A stretch of DNA of 64,000 nucleotides from Candidatus Zixiibacteriota bacterium (GCA_040752595.1 JBFMGX010000020.1:21622-85621), one strand, 5' to 3'. Shown: positions 32,326 through 48,609, numbered from the stretch's first letter. Numbers and translations: made by a program. Notes: generated by a model not told the origin, from the sequence alone.

Positions 32326-32410
32326 GCCGAAGTGGTGGAATTGGCAGACACGCCATCTTGAGGGGGTGGTGGGGAGACCCGTGCGGGTTCAAATCCCGCC
32401 TTCGGCACCA
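32326..32410 (+). tRNA. leuU: tRNA-Leu (anticodon GAG), class II with long variable arm, CCA encoded
   Basis: Hand-folded. Acceptor GCCGAAG/CTTCGGC; D-arm GTGG-AATTGGCAGA-CAC; anticodon arm CCATC-TTGAGGG-GGTGG; variable arm TGGGGAGACCCGT; T-arm GCGGG-TTCAAAT-CCCGC; then ACCA. Collinear with E. coli tRNA-Leu. Confidence 0.9.
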
Positions 32411-32431
32411 AGATCCGACGACATACCGCGT

Positions 32432-32607
32432 GCGGACAGGGGGCTTTCAGCCCCCTGATTCTATTTTGGGTTTGCAGTCGTTGGTCAGGAGCCCTGCGCT
32501 CCTGACGGATGGTGTCTGGAGCACGGTTCGACTTCGCTCACCGCAAGCGGGGTTCCCGACCTACACGAGAACCTCTTCTTGCAGGGGGTTGAAAACCCCC
32601 TGTCCTC
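32432..32607. repeat. F1 hairpin, F6 hairpin and inverted F1 hairpin between tRNA-Leu and tag
   Basis: gcggacagggggctttcagccccctg (32432-32457), gtcaggagccctgcgctcctgac (32484-32506), and cagggggttgaaaaccccctgtcctc (32582-32607). Confidence 0.8.
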
Positions 32608-32618
32608 AGGAGGGGAAG

Positions 32619-33191
32619 GTGCCCAGCAAGACGCGTTGCCCGTGGCCGACTGATGATCCGCTCATGATCGAGTACCATGATCGTGAGTGGGGTAAACCGC
32701 TCCATGACGACCGCCGGCTGTTTGAATTCCTCGTGCTGGAAGGTATGCAGGCCGGGCTGTCGTGGCGGACGGTTTTGCACAAGCGGGAGAACTACCGCCG
32801 GGCATTTGATGGTCTCGATCCGGAGAAGATCGCGCACTACACGAGGCGTAAGGTCGAACGGTTGCTTGCGGACCCGGGGATCATCCGCAATCGTCTGAAG
32901 ATCGAGGCGGCCATCGGCAATGCGCGGGCGTTCCTGCGGGTCGTCGACGAGTTCGGCAGTTTTGATCGGTATGTCTGGCGGTTCGTCGACGGTCGGCCGA
33001 TTGTGAATCGTTGGCGAACACTGAAGCAACTGCCCGCCATCAGTCCCGAGGCGGAGGCGCTGTCAAAGGATCTCAGGCTGCGCGGCTTTCGTTTCGTCGG
33101 CCCCACGATCGTTTATGCTCATATGCAAGCCACCGGCATGGTGAATGACCACCTGGTCAGTTGCTTCCGTCACCGCGAACTATCGCGATGA
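32619..33191 (+). CDS. tag: DNA-3-methyladenine glycosylase I
   Basis: CPWPTDDPLMIEYHDREWGKPLHDDRRLFEFLVLEGMQAGLSWRTVLHKRENYR. Start set to GTG 32619, after AGGAGGGG. The ORF-track start 32358 lies inside the tRNA gene. Confidence 0.85.
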   Translation: MPSKTRCPWPTDDPLMIEYHDREWGKPLHDDRRLFEFLVLEGMQAGLSWRTVLHKRENYRRAFDGLDPEKIAHYTRRKVERLLADPGIIRNRLKIEAAIGNARAFLRVVDEFGSFDRYVWRFVDGRPIVNRWRTLKQLPAISPEAEALSKDLRLRGFRFVGPTIVYAHMQATGMVNDHLVSCFRHRELSR

Positions 33192-33236
33192 GGGCCGGGG
33201 GCCTCAGGCCCTTGCGGTTCGACGCGGTCAGCACAA

Positions 33237-33302
33237 CAGGGGGTTGAAAACCCCTGTCCTCAAGGATTCGCTTCTCGCGGACAGGGGGCTTTCAGCCCGC
33301 TG
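33237..33302. repeat. Inverted pair of F1 hairpins
   Basis: cagggggttgaaaacccctgtcctc (33237-33261) and gcggacagggggctttcagcccgctg (33277-33302). The second overlaps the last codons of the DUF5131 ORF. Confidence 0.8.
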
Positions 33303-34056
33303 TGGTTAGACCCGAGCGGCTCCGAGCGGCCACCTGTCTGTCCCTGTCCGGCTCCGGCATTTCGTCCCAGGTGCGGCCATCGAGAACGCGTCCCTGTCGC
33401 TTCTTGTGGACGCCGCCCCACTGTTTGAAGAAGAACGGAACTTCCCTGACAAGACACTGGTCGCGGATATCACGGACCCAATCGGCCTGCATCGGACGGC
33501 AACCGGGGCCGGATTCGCCGCCGGCAATGACCCAGTCAATCCCATCAAGCGGCAACCTGGGAATCGGACCAAGCAACGGCTCGACTGAGAGGAAGCGCAC
33601 CGCCGCCGGGACCTCTTTCAGGTAGTGGACGCGGTGAACGTACCTGTGGTCTTCGACGCTCACGCCCATCCACACGTTCCTAGGCCACGGCAACTGACGC
33701 CAGACCTCGGCAAGACGCTCGGCGCGTTTGGTCAAAATCTGGAACTGGTGCCAGCCCGCCTCCTGCATCACCCAGAAGACCTTCTGGATGAACTCCAACG
33801 GCACATCGCGGTGGAACAGATCGCTCATCGAGTTGACGAAGATCGTCTGTGGCTTCGGCCACAGTAGCGGCAGGGGAAGGGCATTGTCATGAATCGTGAG
33901 CTCGAAGCCATTGCGATAGTTCTCCGACCCCATGGCCCGCAGGCGTCTGGCCATGCGCTCCGCATAGCAGAATTTGCATCCCGGGCTGACCTTGTCGCAC
34001 CCGGTGACCGGGTTCCAGGTCGAGTTCGTCCATTCGATGGGGGAGGAGAGGGCCAT
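33292..34056 (-). CDS. Phage Gp37/Gp68-family protein (DUF5131)
   Basis: [30 protein letters not shown]..., [49 protein letters not shown] and FFFKQWGG are the family hallmarks. Start trimmed to ATG 34056; the upstream extension runs through repeat F4. Confidence 0.8.
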
Positions 34057-34089
34057 GGACGCTGCTATATAGCCGATTCCCAGTCCCAT

Positions 34090-34193
34090 GTCATCCCGAG
34101 CGAGTTTCTCCACCTGCGGCGGAGAGACGACACGAGGGATCTGCTGTTTTGCCGCTGTTAAGAAAGCAGATGCCTTGCTGCGCTCGGCATGAC
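34090..34193. repeat. Family F4 palindromic element
   Basis: gtcatcccgagcgag...cacgagggatctgctg // aagcagatgccttgctgcgctcggcatgac, in the divergent spacer between the DUF5131 and protease genes. Confidence 0.85.
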
Positions 34194-34298
34194 ATATTCT
34201 GCCAAGGACTTCGAAGGACACCGCCGCCCTCATCGGCCGGGCGAGAAAGGGCGCGATGGGTTGCGCGGTGGGCGTGACTTCGAGGTGAGAAAACCACC

Positions 34299-35162
34299 GT
34301 GGGTAGCAGACATAACGACAGGGTTCGGAGAATGGCCGCCCTTTTCGGCAGCGCTGCCATCGCACTCTTCTTGTATTCTGGAGCCGCGACGCCACTGCGC
34401 AGTCAACCTTGGAGTGTTGTAGAACAAAAGGAGGTCATTAAGAGCTGGGAGCTGCCTGTTTGCTACGTCGTGTCACACGGGGACAGCACGAAGTATGGCT
34501 CCGGATTCTTGATGGGCACTGCAGATTCCAACATGTTTCTGTTCTTCACCGCGCTGCACGTGGTGCAAGGCAGCGATTCGGTCCAGGTTCAACTCGGGAT
34601 CTATGACGGTGACTGCAATCGTAGGAGATGGGAGTTCAGGTGGGTCCCCCATGAAGCTGGGCAAAGGGTCTACTACGTATCGGACCCTTCCTACGACTGT
34701 GCGTGGATCCCGATCCGGCGGGAGTTGATCGTCAGGGGACTTCCAGCGACATGGCGCTTCTGGTTTGTGAAGAAGAACCAATTGGTCCCGGTCGACAGCC
34801 TCTGCGTTGGACTTCCGGTCGTGTTCGCTGGTTACCCTGCGGGCCTTTCTGTGGGATCAAAGGTCCCGGTCGTACGGTTCGGACGAATTGCCGCAATAGG
34901 CCTGGACCCCAGACAGGTCCTTCTGGATGCGAACGTATTCCAAGGATCGAGCGGAAGCCCAGTTCTTCTTGATAAGACAGATCCCCGCACCAGGGCATTC
35001 GAAGGGAGTCTCGTGGGCCTGATCTTTGAGAATCTGGATGTACTGAGGCAGTCCCCCGAGAGTCAGTTCCGATCGACGGAGAACCTTGGCATCGGGTGTG
35101 TGGTGCCAGCCGACGTTCTGCTCAGGAGCGTTGAGCTCTTCGAGAAGCCGCCTCAGCGCTGA
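34299..35162 (+). CDS. Secreted trypsin-like (S1/chymotrypsin-fold) serine protease
   Basis: Signal-like [19 protein letters not shown] (alternative start 34332). Catalytic His context FTALHVV, candidate Asp in YDCAWIPI, and Ser in [12 protein letters not shown]. Visibly lower GC than its neighbours. Confidence 0.7.
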
Positions 35163-43440: not shown

Positions 43441-43997
43441 TCCAAAATCCCCTTCTGTCTCAGCATTTGACGGCAGGACTTGACAGCGTAGAAGATCCGC
43501 GACTTCACCGTTCCGAGCGGAGCCCGCACGAGTTCGGCGATCTCTTCATAGCTGTGGCTCCCGTAGAATCGCAGGACCAAGACATCGCGATGTTCCGCAC
43601 TCAGCGCGCGAATCACTTCGACCACGAGACGATCACGTTCATCGGCCAGGATCCGCTCCAGCGCGTTCTGTCGATGGTCCTGTGGATCCTGCCCGTCGAG
43701 CTTCACGTTTCGCCTCGACCTCTCGGTCTCCTTCACCGCCAGCCGATAGGCGATGGTGCCGAGGTACCCTCCCACCGTCCCCTGGTGGTGGCCGATATCA
43801 GCTCGCAATGCCCGGATGAATGTCTCCTGCACCACGTCGTCTGCGGCCGCGTCCGATCCGGTGATGAGAAGCGCCAGCGCGCCGAGGCGTGCCCGGTGCT
43901 CTTTTATCAGAACACGCCATGCACGATCGTCTCCACGACGGGCCCGGTGGAAGTACTCCCATCCTGGAGTCAGCGATGAATGCTCGGATTCCGGCAC
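43437..43997 (-). CDS. ECF-type RNA polymerase sigma factor
   Basis: Region 2 is DDVVQETFIRAL...GYLGTIAYRLA. Region 4 is EHRDVLVLRFYGSHSYEEIAELVRAPLGTVKSRIFYA. Confidence 0.85.
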   Translation of the reverse strand: MPESEHSSLTPGWEYFHRARRGDDRAWRVLIKEHRARLGALALLITGSDAAADDVVQETFIRALRADIGHHQGTVGGYLGTIAYRLAVKETERSRRNVKLDGQDPQDHRQNALERILADERDRLVVEVIRALSAEHRDVLVLRFYGSHSYEEIAELVRAPLGTVKSRIFYAVKSCRQMLRQKGILE

Positions 43998-45277
43998 GAT
44001 ATGCCTTGTTCCCTACACCATGCCTCGACTTCCTCAATCTCAGAACAGCAGGAGCCGCACCATGCCCTCGCCGTCTCGCCCCGACGCTCATCAGTCAGGA
44101 GCTTCTCCACGTGCTCCACGTACCAGTGGAAGAGCCCGCTGCGCAAGCTCGGCGCGTGCTCTTTCAGTGGCATCAAGTTCGCCACGGCGGCGCCCGCGTA
44201 GTTGGAGACCAGCATTCGCCCGGCATCGGTTTCGGGTGCATGGCGCAGCCGCCAGCCGTCCAGTCCCCCGGTTCGAAAGGCGCCGATCCACCGGCCATAT
44301 ACGGTCTGGAGTTGTTCGCCGTAGGGGATACGGGGTACGGTCACAAGGGTCGCCAGGCCCAGGTCCCTTCCGTTGGCGACAACCTCTTTCAGCCGGTCGG
44401 TGGCATGGACAGTTCTCGACACGAAGACGGGGCGTCCGGCACGCTCCGCGGAGGCGATGATCCGGAGGATCAGCGTATCGCCGAATGGTCCTCCCGGCGA
44501 CGGCTGCATCTTCTTGTTCTTCATTCTCTCGAGAATCGCGCTTCGCAGGTTGTCCAACTCTTTCTCGTCGATGAACCGCGGCAAACCCTGTTCGATCATT
44601 CGCATCGGATACCACGAGGTGTTCAGCAGGCTGCGGTTGACAATGCTGACATCCGGACGTACGTGCAGGAGGCGCGTGAGAATCCAACCGGGGTAGGTGT
44701 CATTGTCACCGTTGGTGATGAGAATCGCGTTTTCCTCCAAGCTGATCAGTAGGTTGTAGTTATAGTCCATCACCTCATCGGCGATGATCCCGCTCTCCAA
44801 CAGACGACGTAGCGCCAAATCCAGACGCTCCGCGTCGCGGGAGTCCATGTAGTGAGTGACCAGCGGAAACCATGGGTCAACAAAACCCGGCTCGATGGCG
44901 ACGGCGCGTTCCAGATACTCCCGACCGGCCGTGTCATCATGCGCCCCAAGACGTTCACAGGCCTTCAGGTAGAGCAGAGTGGGATTGGCAGGGTATTTCT
45001 CCAGGCCCGCGGCCAGGAGCTGCGAGTAATTTCCATCCCCTGCGTAGCGCGCGGCATACATCCAGTTGGCGTAGGCGTATTCGGAGGGAAAGGCATCGTA
45101 GTAGTCCTTCCACAACGTTGCCAGCTTCGCGTACGTGGCGTCGTCATAGACGACCTGTCGCTTGCTTCTGATTTCCTCCGGTCGCACGATCTCTCTGGCC
45201 GCTGAGTCCTTCGGCGCCAGGACACCGAGCAGCATCACCAGCGCTGTGCCCACCGCCGCGAGATTCTTCCGCATCAT
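43970..45277 (-). CDS. Hypothetical secreted protein (helical-repeat N-terminal half), upstream of the ECF sigma gene
   Basis: AGGAG lies 8 nt before ATG 45277. Signal peptide MMRKNLAAVGTALVMLLGVLAPKDSAA. The segment ILITNGDNDTYPGWILTRLLHVRPDVSIVNRSLL recalls DUF2723-type proteins, a weak call from memory. Confidence 0.5.
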   Translation of the reverse strand: MMRKNLAAVGTALVMLLGVLAPKDSAAREIVRPEEIRSKRQVVYDDATYAKLATLWKDYYDAFPSEYAYANWMYAARYAGDGNYSQLLAAGLEKYPANPTLLYLKACERLGAHDDTAGREYLERAVAIEPGFVDPWFPLVTHYMDSRDAERLDLALRRLLESGIIADEVMDYNYNLLISLEENAILITNGDNDTYPGWILTRLLHVRPDVSIVNRSLLNTSWYPMRMIEQGLPRFIDEKELDNLRSAILERMKNKKMQPSPGGPFGDTLILRIIASAERAGRPVFVSRTVHATDRLKEVVANGRDLGLATLVTVPRIPYGEQLQTVYGRWIGAFRTGGLDGWRLRHAPETDAGRMLVSNYAGAAVANLMPLKEHAPSLRSGLFHWYVEHVEKLLTDERRGETARAWCGSCCSEIEEVEAWCREQGISCRNPSIHR

Positions 45278-45668: not shown

Positions 45669-45750
45669 TGGTGGAGGCGGGGGGAATCGAACCCCGTTTT
45701 GCGATACGGGACATGGGGTTAAGTGGTACTGTGGCCAAATCGTGACCACA
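45669..45750 (-). repeat. Copy A: displaced tmRNA 3'-end fragment (att-like) plus shared ~55-bp arm
   Basis: tggtggaggcggggggaatcgaaccccg matches ssrA 48255-48280 (one C fewer) and carries an encoded CCA. The following gttttgcgatacgggacatggggttaagtggtactgtggccaaatcgtgacc is shared only with copy B. Confidence 0.8.
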
Positions 45751-45784
45751 TTCTGCACCCGTCTGGCCGACGCTGTGGGTGTGT

Positions 45785-46225
45785 CTATAGCAGCTCAGGA
45801 TGATGCGTCTTCAGCCAGTCCTTAAGCAACTTCGCGAGTTCACGCGCGAGCCTCAGCACCTCGGCGACCTCGGTCTCCGAAACCGTACCGGCTGCATCAT
45901 AGCTGACGATGCTCCGCTTCTTCCGAAATGCGTGGAGGGTGGGGATCAACCCGGCAGGTGGCTTCATAGTGAATCTCCAGGACTCGATTGTGCGGTAGTG
46001 ATGGCCGTCGCCTTCAGGTGCGCGGTATCCGCTGGCGCGCAGGGCGACCGTGGCACAGCCGAGACAGGCGTTGTATGCAATGGCCAGCCGCCAGTCGGCG
46101 GAAATCTCGGACTTCCCGGCTTCCGCAATGTCGCGATCGACTTTCTCCAGGAGCGCTTTCACCTCGGCGGCGCTGGTCGTGTGGGCTTTCAGCCAGCCGC
46201 TATTCAGCCAGTCGGCCAAGCTCAT
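45785..46225 (-). CDS. HEPN-like domain protein (putative toxin partner of the adjacent nucleotidyltransferase)
   Basis: 146 aa from ATG 46225 (MSLADWLNSGWLK). All-helical, with the segment HAFRKKRSIVSYD resembling the R-x(4-6)-H/Y region of HEPN proteins. Overlaps the MNT gene stop by 26 nt. Confidence 0.55.
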   Translation of the reverse strand: MSLADWLNSGWLKAHTTSAAEVKALLEKVDRDIAEAGKSEISADWRLAIAYNACLGCATVALRASGYRAPEGDGHHYRTIESWRFTMKPPAGLIPTLHAFRKKRSIVSYDAAGTVSETEVAEVLRLARELAKLLKDWLKTHHPELL

Positions 46226-46862
46226 CTGGACCTCCGATGAGGAAGATCTTGTCTGAAGCCAGCACGCTGAGAACGAAGTGGTTCTTCTGTTGAATCTTCC
46301 CGACAAACTCCTTTTGCGAGAACACCGATGGATTGACTGATCTGCCCAACACTTGCTCAGTCTTCTCCAATGCAGAGGCCAGGTCGCGCAGCTTCACACC
46401 GCCAATGACCATAACGTCAACATCGCTGCGTCCTGTCTGGGTCTCTGAGGCGATCGACCCGTAGACAAACGCGATCTTGATCTTGCGCGATTGCGGACGT
46501 AAGGCGGCCCGGAGGGTGTCGGCGATGCCAAAGGTCTTCACAACGATCGCACGAAGCTCTGGGAAGATGGGGCAATCGCGTTCGGCCGAGTAATAGCGTT
46601 GACGGCCGACGAGTTCCGATTTGAGAACCCCGGCCTGCGTGAGCGCAGCCAGCTCGCGCTGTACGGTGCCAGGCGATCCTCGGACAAGCCGGGCGATTTC
46701 GCGAAAATACAGGCGGCGGTCAGGGGTGGACAGAAAGGTCGTGAGCAGTTGCCTGCGGATCTTGGAGAAGAGGATCTCACCTGCCGTTCGCTTCGGTCTT
46801 TGCGATGGACTCGTTGATCTCATCTTGAGATCAATTGATCTCAATTTGAGTACGACTGTCAA
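46200..46862 (-). CDS. Winged-HTH + minimal nucleotidyltransferase (MNT) fusion protein (putative antitoxin)
   Basis: The wHTH is LYFREIARLVRGSPGTVQRELAALTQAGVLKSELVGRQRYY. The NTase motif is FVYGSIASETQTGRSDVDVMVIG. Confidence 0.75.
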   Translation of the reverse strand: MTVVLKLRSIDLKMRSTSPSQRPKRTAGEILFSKIRRQLLTTFLSTPDRRLYFREIARLVRGSPGTVQRELAALTQAGVLKSELVGRQRYYSAERDCPIFPELRAIVVKTFGIADTLRAALRPQSRKIKIAFVYGSIASETQTGRSDVDVMVIGGVKLRDLASALEKTEQVLGRSVNPSVFSQKEFVGKIQQKNHFVLSVLASDKIFLIGGPDELGRLAE

Positions 46863-47038
46863 GCCAATTCGTGGAAGAGAATTGACTAGGCCACGGGTTA
46901 CCCGTGCCCATGTAGTGTGGCCAGATTGTGACCAGGATTATTCCGCGTTATCCGATGCGGTTGAACGATATAGCAGGGCGACCGGGGGGACAAGACCCCC
47001 GTCCGTCTCGTAACATATTGACGCGCAACGAAGTGAAC

Positions 47039-47120
47039 TGGTGGAGGCGGGGGGAATCGGACCCCCGTTTTGCGATACGGGACATGGGGTTAAGTGGTAC
47101 TGTGGCCAAATCGCGACCGG
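47039..47120 (-). repeat. Copy B: displaced tmRNA 3'-end fragment (att-like) plus shared arm
   Basis: tggtggaggcggggggaatcggacccccgttttgcgatacgggacatggggttaagtggtactgtggccaaatcgcgacc. Differs from copy A by only 2 substitutions and 1 indel over ~80 nt. Confidence 0.8.
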
Positions 47121-47202
47121 ATGCAATACAGGACATGGTGCCAAATGGGCACTCCGCCCGAATCGTGATCACTTCCTGCGCTGTTTGTCAGCGGCCACGA
47201 AC

Positions 47203-47877
47203 CTACCGAAACCACCGCACACCGCCGTCTGCCCCATCGCCTTGGACCCGTCCGCAATGGGGACAACGAGTCCATGAATCCACTCGCTTCCCCGCCACAA
47301 CATACCGCCCACCACATGACTGGCAGACAGACTCAAGACCTCGTTGAGGAGATGGCTCGTTCTCCCTTGGGCGCGCGTCTATCCGTCCATCCGTAGTGTC
47401 CTGAGACAAGTCGGAGTTCTGGTCGATGGGATAGCAGCCACAGATTCTGACCACCACTCGCAACGCGTCCTTCAACGGCAGTTGAAAGAACTCACTCCTC
47501 TCAACGCGGTACTCCGACAGTTCCTCGTGGATCCTCCGTTCCGCAGAATGGTGATCGCTGACCAATTCCTCGTAGACAACCTCAAAGCGGCCGGGCACGC
47601 CGGTCGGCTCCGATAGTTCACTGGCCCGCTCCTCAGGAGGATGGCTGGTCTTGCCTATCTTGTACAGGTCCGGGGAATGACGCGGGTTTCTCAGCACGTA
47701 GATGTAGCCTGCCGTCCCGGAGTCAGGTGGGTGTTTCGCATCAACGGGATAGAGTCGGTCGAACCAATCAAGTACGTTGTGGCCGCAAGCCGGGCACAGC
47801 TCACAACGTGCCGTCAGCCGTGCGCCGCAACCAGGGCAAAATGTGTGGGGTTGGTCTATGTGGTCTTCCTCAACCAC
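47203..47877 (-). CDS. T5orf172 / MUG113-type GIY-YIG-superfamily protein flanked by two zinc ribbons
   Basis: Core is GYIYVLRNPRHSPDLYKIGKTSHPPEERASEL...FEVVYEELVSDHHSAERRIHEELSEYRVERSEFFQLPL. N-terminal CPGCGARLTARCELCPACGH and C-terminal CQSCGG...CPHCGR. Confidence 0.75.
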   Translation of the reverse strand: MVEEDHIDQPHTFCPGCGARLTARCELCPACGHNVLDWFDRLYPVDAKHPPDSGTAGYIYVLRNPRHSPDLYKIGKTSHPPEERASELSEPTGVPGRFEVVYEELVSDHHSAERRIHEELSEYRVERSEFFQLPLKDALRVVVRICGCYPIDQNSDLSQDTTDGRIDARPRENEPSPQRGLESVCQSCGGRYVVAGKRVDSWTRCPHCGRVQGDGADGGVRWFR

Positions 47878-47895
47878 TGCGGGATTGCCAAGGGC

Positions 47896-48141
47896 TCAGG
47901 ACCAGAAGTGTCGTTTTGCGAACGCGTGGCCGGAGCCGGATTTCAAGTATCGCTCGAATGCTACCGCGCACGAATCGGCCCTGAACCGGATGGCGACTTC
48001 GACTTCCCAAGGCACATTCTTGGACGTGTGCACGGACTTGCCGGTGTTGTGCTCGTTCAGACGGCGGTTCAGGTCGTCGGTAATACCGATGCAGGTCTCT
48101 GTCGGGTTGGAGAGACTACGGAGGAGATAGACGTACTTCAC
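47896..48141 (-). CDS. Small GIY-YIG nuclease-family protein (UPF0213-like)
   Basis: 81 aa: MKYVYLLRSLSNPTETCIGITDDLNRRLNEHNTGKSVHTSKNVPWEVEV..., with the GIY-YIG core Y-x-Y...G-x-T...R...H/E...N. Lies 18 nt upstream of the T5orf172 gene. Confidence 0.8.
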   Translation of the reverse strand: MKYVYLLRSLSNPTETCIGITDDLNRRLNEHNTGKSVHTSKNVPWEVEVAIRFRADSCAVAFERYLKSGSGHAFAKRHFWS

Positions 48142-48215
48142 TGATGCGACTCCAGTGGATGGTATCCGCCCTGCTTCGCAAGCATCGCCTCAGGCGCCGT
48201 TTGCTTTGCAGGGCA

Positions 48216-48254
48216 TTCTGCATAGCGAGGCGCGAGGCGCCTCGCGGCGCAGAA
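48216..48254 (-). terminator. GC-rich nested hairpin immediately 3' of ssrA
   Basis: Outer stem ttctgc/gcagaa (48216-21 / 48249-54) and an inner perfect 16-nt palindrome cgcgaggcgcctcgcg (48231-48246). No U-tract. Confidence 0.4.
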
Positions 48255-48609
48255 TGGAGGCGGGGGGAATCGAACCCCCGTCCGAAAGTGCCTACAAGAG
48301 GCCGTCTACCCGCGTAGTCGGTCGTTTGTATCTCGCCCCGTCAGGCGCCGAGCGACAGGCTCCCGGCAGAGCCATCCCGGTTTAGCTTCGCCGGATGCTC
48401 CCGGGAGCGGCGTCCAGCTATCCCTCCTTATCGTCGAGCGGTCAGGCGCCGAGGGCGGGCCCCTGAGCCGTCGGGCTACCTGAGATTAGGCAGCCAGCGC
48501 ATACGAATAGTCGTCTGCGTTTCGTTGTGTCCCAATGGTTTAACGAGGATCTTGGGGACCTCGGCGGGCAAACCTCCCTTCGGCGACTCCGTCGAAACCA
48601 GTCGCCCCC
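48255..48609 (-). ncRNA. ssrA: tmRNA (ssrA), one-piece, ~355 nt, CCA not encoded
   Basis: The 5' end is GGGGGCGACUGGUUUCGACGG and the 3' end is GGACGGGGGUUCGAUUCCCCCCGCCUCCA. The acceptor pairs GGGGGCG with CGCCUCC, including the G3:U wobble. The internal tag reading frame is GCA GAC GAC UAU UCG UAU GCG CUG GCU GCC UAA = ADDYSYALAA* (48486-48518). The resume codon is not certain. Confidence 0.9.

Follow-up and report, generated by a model that had tools for sequence, protein, structure and literature searches.

The 3' end of the tmRNA gene (ssrA) of a Candidatus Zixiibacteriota bacterium appears to be an insertion hot spot that holds a short array of tiny, integrase-less cassettes. The window, that is, the whole 64-kb stretch of DNA that we analysed (GCA_040752595.1 JBFMGX010000020.1:21622-85621), contains this array at positions 45,669–48,609. 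Our analysis supports the reading of two displaced tmRNA 3' ends as attR-type boundaries of two successive insertions, and supports tandem accretion as the way in which the array was built. We propose, with a probability of roughly 60%, that the units are cis-mobilisable mini-cassettes integrating at the tmRNA T-loop through a putative trans-acting recombinase.

The live tmRNA gene and its displaced 3' ends

The live ssrA gene (48255–48609; minus strand, as are all features annotated below) was identified by ARAGORN, which gave the tag peptide ADDYSYALAA, and by a match to Rfam RF00023 (162.7 bits, E = 2e-65). In both analyses the gene is intact at full length, and the inserted units begin at its last base. 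Its upstream neighbour encodes an 1110-aa protein with a hydrophobic, signal-peptide-like N-terminal start, for which a Pfam search returned zero matches. The T-arm of ssrA reads GGGGG-TTCGATT-CCCCC, and the final 27 nt of the gene (48255–48281), ACGGGGGTTCGATTCCCCCCGCCTCCA, constitute the attL-side core. The live gene has no encoded CCA, and TTC stands directly 3' of it instead.

The 27-nt terminal block has two displaced copies, a middle one (47042–47068) and a distal one (45672–45697). A search of the window with a 20-nt core pattern returned 3 true matches against 0.01 expected by chance. Both displaced copies start exactly at the 5' strand of the T-stem, end at the discriminator, and are followed by an encoded CCA (47039–47041 and 45669–45671, respectively), the displaced ends with their CCA thus occupying 47039–47068 and 45669–45697. 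Pairwise alignment of the three tmRNA-end copies revealed a single T>C change in the T-loop of the middle core, which reads TCCGATT, and the loss of one G from the 5' T-stem strand of the distal core, the T-loop of which (TTCGATT) is intact. The native chromosomal flank begins after the CCA of the distal copy.

Each displaced core is preceded by an arm, designated the P arm. The middle P arm (52 nt, 47067–47118) holds a palindrome-like GTGGTC(A/G)C-N4-TGGCCAC and a CCATGTCCCGTATCGCA block; the distal P arm (45696–45760) comprises the 52-nt arm and a conserved 13-nt upstream block, GGGTGCAGAATGT. The two arms are identical at 46 of 46 positions (45696–45741 versus 47067–47112; 0.00 expected by chance), and this 46-nt block has no further match elsewhere in the 64-kb window. 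No alignment was found between the arm and the live tmRNA body. Just upstream of the intact middle arm lies a degenerate, coreless extra arm copy (47122–47179), which matches the two arms locally at 16/19 and 15/17 positions. The two units measure 1213 nt and 1370 nt.

The preliminary description, made from the sequence alone, had placed ssrA on the minus strand at 48609–48255 and had reported the two displaced cores, the CCA after both of them and not after the live gene, and a near-identical arm unrelated to the tmRNA body. All of these observations were confirmed, with coordinates accurate within 1–2 nt and unit sizes in agreement.

A composite proximal island and a distal PDC-M05 cassette

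The proximal island (island A) opens with a two-hairpin leader (48168–48255) that starts at the tmRNA discriminator base. Its hairpins, H1 (48215–48255, A-TTCTGC...GCAGAA-T) and H2 (48168–48214), are kept with compensatory changes in the related locus L100 and in both copies in the related contig L128; RNAalifold on the 4 aligned sequences gave 35 pairs, of which 5 have changed on both sides. The leader is followed by a gene that starts with GTG (47896–48141) and encodes a stand-alone protein of 81 aa with a GIY-YIG nuclease domain (Pfam PF01541, E = 2.7e-9); it shows 73–74% identity to the gene at the equivalent position in L100. The protein has the catalytic domain of GIY-YIG homing endonucleases, at residues 1–69 of the 81 aa, and no separate DNA-binding domain for a long target. 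GIY-YIG profile matches lie directly 3' of ssrA in L073, L100, L115, L119, L061, and L112, and the leader and GIY-YIG gene immediately follow ssrA in 4 of the 4 Zixibacteria genome loci with downstream sequence as well as in L128. The junction CCTCCA|TTCTGCG is also present in L100 and, twice, in L128. The absent CCA belongs to the junction of the GIY-YIG unit.

The cargo of the proximal arm-type cassette is a 224-aa T5orf172/MUG113 protein of the GIY-YIG superfamily (47203–47877; Pfam PF10544, E = 4.8e-19), with an N-terminal zinc ribbon (Pfam DZR, residues 11–32), C-terminal CxxC pairs read from the translation, and a partial match to PADLOC PDC-S57. It has no close relatives, the best homologue being 37% identical. 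In the window and in L128, the GIY-YIG gene is joined to the next cargo without an intervening att site; in L128 a near-identical GIY-YIG leader stands behind the live core and again behind the displaced one. L128, L130, and, weakly, L127 have remnants of GIY-YIG after their last core, the pattern predicted if T-loop insertions split an older ssrA–GIY pair. Island A is a composite: its leader, GIY-YIG gene, and junction without CCA make up a separate unit next to ssrA that is typical of the lineage. The two islands had at first been regarded as two related elements with the same arm that were inserted successively; the shared P arm and the successive insertions stand, but island A and the distal island (island B) are not simple sisters.

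The distal PDC-M05 cassette carries a P' module (46824–47038), which is conserved in L127 and L130 (65–80% identity over ~220 nt) and, in part, in L138. The module includes a GTTACG-N4-hairpin, GGACGGGGGTCTTGTCCCCCCG (46983–47014), a third copy (46912–46933) of a 22-nt arm motif that is also present at 45726–45747 and 47097–47118, a conserved TTGACA block (46845–46863), and a perfect 20-nt palindrome, TTGAGATCAATTGATCTCAA (46825–46844). In L131, the homologue of the hairpin has a T-run directly 3'. The cassette has arm motifs on either side of the core, and equivalent sites exist in L127 and L130.

The cargo comprises two adjacent genes with a 26-nt overlap. PDC-M05A (46200–46823) encodes a 207-aa protein with a winged-HTH and a Pol-beta-type nucleotidyltransferase domain (PADLOC PDLC04368, E = 1.7e-69; Pfam Polbeta and NTP_transf_2; the MntA match was below threshold). 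PDC-M05B (45785–46225) encodes a 146-aa helical protein (PADLOC PDLC04377, E = 1.9e-51), the AF2 model of which is a helical bundle; a fold search with it gave no significant match. The matches of both genes to the PADLOC models assign the pair to the PDC-M05 family, and PADLOC PDC families are candidate defence systems only. The complete PDC-M05A/B pair and the T5orf172 and GIY-YIG proteins agree with the early impression that the cargo in the window is defence- or nuclease-like.

Conservation of the arm–core module and variability of the locus

The arm and core form a module of ~90 nt, of which we found 11 copies in 7 contigs (the window, L127, L128, L130, L131, L134, and L135), with a mean column identity of 89% over 93 alignment columns; L138 holds a further, diverged copy. 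The module is not a generic dispersed repeat unrelated to ssrA, since 11 of the 11 copies adjoin a copy of the tmRNA end; in contigs that reach the ssrA end, the copies always lie downstream of the gene. Upstream of the module, the cassettes are unrelated in sequence, and the cargo that the module closes varies. Cassette sizes across the family range from 0.3 to 2.3 kb, and the cargo beyond defence includes a hydrolase, an S41-like peptidase, and a TspO–epimerase pair. A cassette of ~290 nt in L131 has no ORF at all, which shows that a unit can consist of the att modules only. In L135, an M05-type P' with its promoter block stands before another gene. DNA folding of the module gave no single-strand fold (z-scores from –0.35 to +0.87), and its consensus fold was confined to the T-arm and a 6-bp palindrome and had zero compensatory pairs.

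The first chromosomal gene past the array is TMEM260_2-like (435 aa, 43970–45277), and next to it come genes for a sigma factor and a putative anti-sigma factor. Relatives have kept this block of three genes, which marks the end of the array. Related ssrA loci differ in content rather than carrying the same genes without repeats: L100 has the same ssrA neighbourhood as the window with the GIY-YIG gene only and neither cassette, L128 has the GIY-YIG gene and PDC-M05 without T5orf172, and L127 has a hydrolase cassette instead. The locus accordingly shows the intact gene, the distal direct repeat of the 3' end, and the presence/absence polymorphism of a Williams-type tRNA/tmRNA island.

The PDC-M05A/B cassette occurs in 5 other contigs and is always the most distal unit, and its proximal neighbour varies (T5orf172 in the window, the hydrolase in L127, GIY-YIG in L128). 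Its proteins are 72–92% identical and the entire cassette is 75–85% identical at the nucleotide level, far above the single host gene compared, the one adjoining ssrA (45–49% identity among the window, L100, and L128), whose product is a surface protein that probably evolves fast. Arm identity (77–83%) was compared with that of third codon positions (54–79%) and adjacent spacer (38–71%), and in 5 of 6 such comparisons the arms were more conserved than near-neutral sites from the genome pair concerned. Conservation above the third codon positions of adjacent genes marks the arm as a functional site rather than a decaying relic, and these alignments indicate that the arms are under purifying selection.

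These data bear on an alternative that we consider unlikely, namely that the units are fixed relics of islands that once bore an integrase, lost their recombination genes by deletion, and are now immobile and vertically inherited. Both displaced cores of L127 have 3-nt T-loop deletions, and units with such overlap-region damage (the window's middle core, TCCGATT, and both L127 copies) may already be immobile; T-loop mutations or deletions in several displaced cores are what relics would show, as is the lack of any recombinase found, and the unvarying, most distal position of PDC-M05 in four contigs fits one old insertion. Against vertical inheritance of immobile relics, however, stand the conservation of the arms, that of the cassette relative to the neighbouring host gene, the cassette-free but otherwise similar neighbourhood in L100, and the proximal cassettes that vary between genomes while having the arm type in common. 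Moreover, at least 9 units in seven contigs, one of them ORF-less, all lack an integrase yet have kept both att modules. The preliminary description had offered decayed or CIME-like elements; the CIME-like part fits, whereas decay is weakened by the selected arms and the intact cargo ORFs.

A putative recombinase acting in trans

As first noted for the units themselves, a recombinase is lacking: profile searches and reading of the remaining ORFs revealed none in the 64-kb window, most ORFs having been identified by eye and not all by profile search. The four cargo proteins contain no recombinase domain, none of the related loci yielded a recombinase, and the integrase of its own that a Williams-type island encodes was not found in the window. 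Beyond the window, the matches listed for the arm in JGI metagenomes were all integrase-less cassette contigs, and those listed for IMG/VR, annotated phages, and plasmids included no true match and no integrase-bearing element. The module recurs in at least seven related metagenome contigs, none with a recombinase, and so looks like the mark of a cassette family moved by an enzyme encoded elsewhere.

We propose that the cassettes move by site-specific recombination catalysed by a tyrosine integrase, the gene of which would lie elsewhere, either on the chromosome or on a helper element. The T-stem inverted repeat (GGGGG/CCCCC) would provide the core-type sites and the 7-nt T-loop TTCGATT the overlap region, and the integrase would bind the arm motifs that flank the core on both sides. 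An arm-type cassette consists of a P' module, 1–2 cargo genes, a conserved ~65-nt P arm, and a duplicate of the T-arm and acceptor 3' strand of the tmRNA. The P' module gives ssrA a replacement 3' flank and a terminator-like hairpin, and the PDC-M05 cargo genes have their own conserved upstream block. Each fresh insertion at the live gene would restore an intact tmRNA end and move the older cassettes further out. For the window, this would mean that PDC-M05A/B arrived first and the T5orf172 cassette later; the separate hairpin and GIY-YIG unit now stands directly after the live gene and explains the absent CCA.

Improbable, in our view, is RecA-dependent swapping after DNA uptake, in which the core, arm, and P' module serve as portable homology and a double-strand break made by a GIY-YIG-superfamily protein might stimulate the exchange in a homing-like manner. 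The GIY-YIG gene lies directly 3' of ssrA in every Zixibacteria locus examined and T5orf172 is a second gene of the superfamily, but the 81-aa protein lacks a DNA-binding domain for target recognition, and homing does not leave its target duplicated as a direct repeat. The leader after both the live and displaced cores of L128 suggests intragenomic copying, and shuffled modules (the P' and promoter block in L135, the GIY-YIG fusions in the window and L128) fit this idea. The 46/46 identity of the window arms fits gene conversion, although homogenisation is not seen among the arms within L127, L130, or L135. In addition, the junctions lie precisely at the T-stem/T-loop, reportedly described by Williams in 2002 as the classical crossover position of tyrosine integrases, and the arm motifs on both sides of the core resemble arm-type binding sites. 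Least credible is an assembly artefact in which cassettes of different strains were joined at the ~55-nt exact repeat common to both units of an uncultured lineage, most likely assembled from a metagenome, because two arm–core units bracket a cassette in independent ENA, Logan, and JGI assemblies (L127, L130, and L135), usual reads and the final k-mers of an assembly are longer than the repeat, and the copies have point differences just outside it.

The reading as cis-mobilisable cassettes can be extended, tentatively and with considerable doubt, to the tmRNA gene as a gene-capture platform in Zixibacteria-like bacteria. A dedicated off-array, possibly chromosomal, recombinase would insert and shuffle minimal cassettes made of two reusable non-coding modules, P' and the ~65-nt P arm with its T-arm core, in an integron-like manner with duplex arm-type att sites and not folded attC sites; P' would re-terminate ssrA and could carry a promoter. 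The minimal GIY-YIG gene with its structured leader would be an independent second player that repeatedly regains the ssrA-adjacent position.

Comparison with known systems

Both tandem islands at tmRNA genes and cis-mobilisable elements without an integrase are already known; in the literature searched, we found no description of a cassette-sized family sharing only two selected non-coding att modules. If the trans-acting recombinase exists, the array would offer a compact natural means of stacking 1–2-gene payloads, including candidate defence genes, at a universally conserved, highly expressed locus, and cassette gain and loss in an uncultured phylum could be tested directly in read data. 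The lineage-wide association of ssrA with a tiny GIY-YIG gene and its hairpin leader could bear on tmRNA 3'-end biology or represent a new minimal selfish gene.

The ssrA islands of Dehalococcoides are tandem units downstream of a single-copy tmRNA gene, with a conserved non-ssrA 15-nt motif just upstream of each repeat; most are multi-kb, 16 encode a CcrB-like serine recombinase (DsiB) within an integration module of six genes, and some, in which integration genes are missing, were interpreted as cis-mobilisable (McMurdie et al. 2011, PMC3146451). The present array shares the tandem arrangement at ssrA, the motif before every repeat, and the integrase-less units. It differs in unit size (0.3–2.3 kb), in the recombinase (0 of at least 9 units), and in the ~65-nt arm with its matching P' module; the DsiB/DsiA serine-recombinase module by attL is absent in the window, where GIY-YIG and T5orf172 are found instead.

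CIMEs of the Streptococcus ICESt1/ICESt3 type are att-flanked elements without recombination or transfer genes that accrete at the 3' end of a conserved gene. Their definition refers to a known ICE with an integrase that acts on the att sites of the CIME, and their mobilisation has been shown experimentally. The term and the accretion concept are cited in the Dehalococcoides study (PMC3146451). The cassettes are likewise flanked by att sites (core repeats, P and P' modules), lack recombination and transfer genes, are accreted in tandem, and are proposed to be mobilised in trans. They differ in their ssrA target and cassette size, and a related autonomous element with an integrase for the same att sites was not found among the matches listed for JGI metagenomes, IMG/VR, phages, and plasmids.

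Tycheposons of Prochlorococcus have their own tyrosine recombinase and replication modules, and their integrase-less pieces have been described as degenerate remnants (Hackl et al., bioRxiv 10.1101/2020.12.28.424599). The similarity lies in tRNA/tmRNA gene targets, outward stacking, and the partial tRNA repeats and degenerate remnants left in islands; the array described here instead holds a conserved integrase-less cassette family with selected arms.

Integron cassettes are also similar in their 1–2 genes, terminal site-like module, diverse cargo, and order, with the newest nearest the insertion point. However, neither IntI nor attI was found next to the array, nor any tyrosine recombinase in the window, and the module lacks a single-strand fold of the attC kind (z about 0, no covariation). 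PDC-M05 also has its own upstream TTGACA and palindrome block, and insertion is at the tmRNA T-loop, not attI. Finally, integrative mobile elements exploiting Xer (IMEX) such as CTX phage and TLC use XerCD at dif and have dif-like sites without arm-type sites. Like them, the cassettes are integrase-less and stand in tandem at one chromosomal site, with a recombinase presumably encoded elsewhere; unlike them, they occupy ssrA and have conserved arms on both sides of the core.

The tmRNA gene, its displaced 3' ends, and the cargo between them

The tmRNA gene (48255–48609, minus strand) was called by ARAGORN with the tag peptide ADDYSYALAA and matched Rfam RF00023 over its full length (162.7 bits). 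Its last 27 nt (ACGGGGGTTCGATTCCCCCCGCCTCCA) recur downstream as 2 displaced cores: a middle core (47042–47068), which has one T>C change in the T-loop, and a distal core (45672–45697), which lacks one G; a 20-nt core pattern has 0.01 matches expected by chance. CCA follows both displaced cores, and TTC follows the live gene. A 52-nt arm precedes each displaced core; 46 nt of this arm are identical between the 2 copies and absent elsewhere in the window. The arm carries a 22-nt palindromic motif and a CCATGTCCYGTATYGCA block, and does not align with the tmRNA body. The preliminary description of an ssrA 3' end with 2 displaced copies, an encoded CCA, and an arm is accurate in all points. An extra degenerate arm without a core (47122–47179) lies immediately upstream of the intact middle arm. 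The intact arms of the window are identical at 46/46 positions; the paired arms in the related metagenome contigs L127 (SRR21120500), L130 (ERZ27267356), and L135 (Ga0315273) differ at 7–9 positions.

The products of unit A (48254–47042) are a GIY-YIG domain protein of 81 aa and a T5orf172 zinc-ribbon protein of 224 aa; for the latter, a homologue search found no close relatives, and genomic context was therefore untraceable. Unit B (47041–45672) contains a complete PDC-M05A/B pair, a PADLOC candidate defence pair composed of a winged-HTH nucleotidyltransferase (M05A; E = 1.7e-69) and a 146-aa helical protein (M05B; E = 1.9e-51). A HEPN identity of PDC-M05B was not confirmed, because it had no sequence match in Pfam, NCBIfam, or PDB, and its AF2 model (pLDDT 72) had no significant fold match. 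A perfect 20-nt palindrome (TTGAGATCAATTGATCTCAA; 46825–46863 region), which is kept in L127, L130, and the contig L138, is probably an autoregulatory operator; it borders a conserved TTGACA block and ends shortly upstream of the PDC-M05A start codon. The ATG of PDC-M05A is 13 nt past an ATCAAT box, a spacing that points to an mRNA with no leader or a very short one. A consensus promoter scan finds nothing there and so gives no support for a canonical sigma-70 promoter at the TTGACA block.

The genome is Zixibacteria/Eisenbacteria-like. The G+C content dips slightly in the array (~0.58, compared with ~0.63 in the flanks). The native flank past the distal core (CCAATCAAG) leads into a TMEM260-like/sigma/anti-sigma block that is conserved in relatives; therefore, the array ends there. 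As the preliminary description had noted for the units, no recombinase was found in the 64-kb window, where ambiguous regions were settled by third-position GC and then Pfam, and the other ORFs, read directly, were housekeeping genes.

Elsewhere in the window, a tRNA-Leu(gag) gene (32326–34395 region) is followed by 2 pairs of hairpin-type direct repeats (32432–32457 with 33277–33302, 96%; 32585–32608 with 33239–33262). These repeats, which are not tRNA-end copies, bracket an ORF read by eye as Tag (3-methyladenine glycosylase) and adjoin a DUF5131 (phage Gp37/Gp68-like) gene (33292–34395, minus strand).

An arm–core module closes cassettes with unrelated cargo

Close homologues of M05A (72–89% identity) led to contigs L127, L128/L129 (L128, ERZ27256953), L130, and L138, and searching JGI metagenomes for the arm block ATTTGGCCACAGTACSAYTTAA, which is conserved, added L131 (Ga0315273), L134, and L135. 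The alternative that the repeat is a generic dispersed element unrelated to ssrA fails, because in every one of these contigs a tmRNA 3'-end copy follows the arm directly. Eleven arm–core copies align over 93 columns with a mean identity of 89%; upstream of the module, the sequences of different cassettes are unrelated. Wherever a contig includes the ssrA end (the window, L128, L131, and L127, which begins in the tmRNA T-arm), the units lie downstream of ssrA.

The module closes PDC-M05A/B in the window, L127, L128, L130, and L138; T5orf172 in the window; a Hydrolase_4 protein in L127; a 324-aa protein and, on the opposite strand, an S41-like peptidase in L135; and TspO with an NmrA-type epimerase in L134. 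In L131, an ORF-less cassette of ~290 nt (L131:4288–4603) directly follows the live ssrA and consists only of the module downstream of the core (P', a hairpin and a T-run) and the arm–core module. A distant M05A homologue (49% identity, L139) adjoins an OLD-family nuclease and has no tmRNA repeat; therefore, the association with the tmRNA repeat is specific to this M05A subfamily.

In the last segment of L135 (L135:3845–4630), a PDC-M05-type P' and a CTTGACAGTYGTACYCAAAWTGAGATC block precede a different, 215-aa cysteine-rich ORF, after which there is no terminal arm–core module. This arrangement suggests module shuffling between cassettes.

The arm and P' are conserved on both sides of the core

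The arm is 77–83% identical between genome pairs, compared with 54–79% for the third codon positions of the adjacent M05B and 38–71% for the 24 nt of spacer that immediately precede it, and it is more conserved than these comparison sites in 5 of 6 pairs. The units, which the preliminary description had likened to decayed islands or cis-mobilisable cassettes, are on this ground better described as selected cassettes.

An attC-like or RNA-like structure of the arm was ruled out: no meaningful single-strand fold was found (z-scores −0.35 to +0.87), and the consensus structure comprises the T-arm and a short palindrome alone, with no compensatory pairs. An Rfam search returned no match in the arm or in the leader of the GIY-YIG gene. 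Lacking a single-strand fold, the arm therefore acts like protein-binding DNA in duplex form rather than like attC.

Conservation extends to the P' side, with the pattern CAAT...GTTACG-N4-GGAYGGGGG-loop-CCCCC. Because a T-run follows the P' hairpin in L131, the cassette seems to supply ssrA with a substitute terminator. A 70% "fourth copy" returned by the repeat finder (46976–47002) is the conserved P' hairpin, behind whose L131 homologue the T-run lies, rather than a decayed core. A further 22-nt arm motif occurs ~110 nt past the core in PDC-M05 cassettes (46912–46933 in the window; L127 and L130 have equivalent sites). The motif therefore stands on both sides of the core in these cassettes. 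Arm-type sites likewise flank the core in lambda-type attP. The displaced repeat starts at the 5' T-stem strand, and the T-arm offers the classical layout of 2 inverted core sites around a 7-nt overlap.

The GIY-YIG unit as a separate element type

Two hairpins follow the live gene from its discriminator base (H1, 48215–48255; H2, 48168–48214), and a small stand-alone GIY-YIG gene lies behind this long hairpin leader (window 47896–48255). The leader and the gene also follow ssrA in L128 and in the Zixibacteria genome locus L100 (JACQFV01), and 5 base pairs are kept by two-sided changes in just 4 leader sequences. With a small profile, a same-strand GIY-YIG gene was found 25–250 nt past ssrA, behind a long hairpin from the tmRNA 3' end, in 6 of the 96 loci with enough downstream sequence among the core matches listed. 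These include all 4 Zixibacteria loci with downstream sequence among the matches listed (L073, L100, L115, and L119); the others (L061 and L112) are one Kiritimatiellota and one Sedimentisphaerales MAG, both of the PVC group. No description of GIY-YIG genes beside tmRNA or tRNA genes was found in the literature that could be searched.

In L100 and L119, the GIY-YIG gene lies alone, with the live core on one side and, on the other, a displaced core that lacks the 5' T-stem strand and begins in the T-loop; this junction type is unlike that of the arm cassettes. In the window, 18 nt without an att site separate GIY-YIG from T5orf172. CCA is encoded by the arm-type cassettes and the native flank, and at 76 of 121 GTDB-genome sites with this core among the matches listed; the CCA-less junction CCTCCA|TTCTGCG belongs to the GIY-YIG unit. 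Unit A is composite, its GIY-YIG/CCA-less part representing a separate element type.

In L128, a second, truncated copy of GIY-YIG lies behind a displaced core and has a near-identical leader, and a further GIY-YIG 3'-end remnant lies between the intact GIY-YIG gene and PDC-M05A (copy and remnant sites, L128:11143–11400 and L128:9846–9935). Hairpin 1 of the truncated copy shows compensatory changes relative to the live copy. These sequences suggest that the GIY-YIG unit was copied repeatedly within the L128 locus.

L119 carries an independent Zixibacteria array (L119:600–2140, minus strand), in which ssrA is followed by a GIY-YIG gene of 83 aa and a displaced core, then by an AT-rich pair of small genes (109 aa and, after it, a PIN-like ORF of ~140 aa) and a third core. 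Its upstream arms are unlike the window type, and the flanks past the second and third cores share TGAGGCTTCCTAA. In L073 (Zixibacteria RBG_16_53_22; L073:6667–6830), the GIY-YIG gene comes after a strongly degenerate core-like stretch, CCCCCCGCTTCCGCCA, and an ORF-free interval of ~140 nt lies between that stretch and the end of the live ssrA. This arrangement may represent an insertion that is minimal or very old.

Evidence for movement

The one host gene compared, which adjoins ssrA and encodes a probably fast-evolving protein, shows only 45–49% identity among the window, L100, and L128, and the tmRNAs show 80–87%. M05A and M05B are 72–92% identical, and the whole cassette, including its non-coding parts, is 75–85% identical. 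Related ssrA loci differ in content: L100 shares the neighbourhood and the tag peptide with the window and has neither cassette. An empty site was not found through the distal flank gene, the homologues of which are at most 67% identical; ssrA is never beside the TMEM260-like/sigma/anti-sigma block in relatives.

The PDC-M05 cassette invariably takes the outermost place, behind varying proximal neighbours, which fits accretion at the live gene, the newest cassette being nearest ssrA. Behind the last core, decayed GIY-YIG remnants are present in L128 (E = 5e-11), L130 (E = 5e-7), and, as a weak match, L127, as expected if insertions split an older ssrA–GIY-YIG pair. Some displaced cores have damaged overlaps (TCCGATT in the middle copy of the window; 3-nt deletions in both L127 copies), and the live and distal overlaps of the window are identical. 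The T>C change in the middle T-loop and the identity of the outer overlaps predict joint rather than single excision, so both cassettes would be expected to leave together if any excision still occurs in the window.

Distribution of the arrays

A genome-collection scan revealed that the 24-nt tmRNA end is common to many phyla (at least 120 loci), and the arm was found in none of these core-bearing loci among the matches listed, to which the genome of the window does not belong. In 8-kb stretches at 120 ssrA loci with the same 3' end, extra degenerate cores occurred, among the matches listed, in L100 and L119 alone. Both are Zixibacteria, so having mini-island arrays at ssrA seems to be a trait of that lineage. 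A third locus with 2 core matches simply has 2 tRNA-Ala genes. In a Bacillota MAG (L080:2650–2730), the 24-nt tmRNA end with CCA stands behind non-tmRNA sequence in an 8-kb stretch where no tmRNA gene was called; the site is probably a displaced copy or the attP of an unrelated element.

The first arm patterns had no match in IMG/VR or JGI metagenomes, and a permissive arm and T-loop scan of viral contigs gave 2 chance matches. In BLAST searches of phages and plasmids, the tRNA-like core alone matched.

Comparison with known systems

The array has neither the IntI nor the folded attC that define integrons, and its units lack the integrase of an autonomous island. The units have the structure of a CIME, with no cognate autonomous element found in the collections scanned. 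We consider it somewhat probable (roughly 0.6) that they are trans-mobilised cassettes, the recombinase being the missing piece. The preliminary interpretation was largely right and now has comparative data behind it, apart from the decay it offered as one option and its inclusion of the GIY-YIG/CCA-less part, which is a separate element type.

Of the documented systems, the closest is that of the ssrA islands of Dehalococcoides, in which tandem units are inserted in the T-loop and bounded by a 20-nt ssrA repeat, with a conserved 15-nt motif upstream of each repeat; some units lack integration genes, and the authors proposed that they are cis-mobilisable (PMC3146451). Tycheposons, too, accumulate in stacks at tRNA and tmRNA genes, where they leave remnants (bioRxiv 10.1101/2020.12.28.424599). 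What sets the present units apart is that they are cassette-sized, none of at least 9 carries a recombinase, and both att arms are long, conserved, and reused around unrelated cargo.
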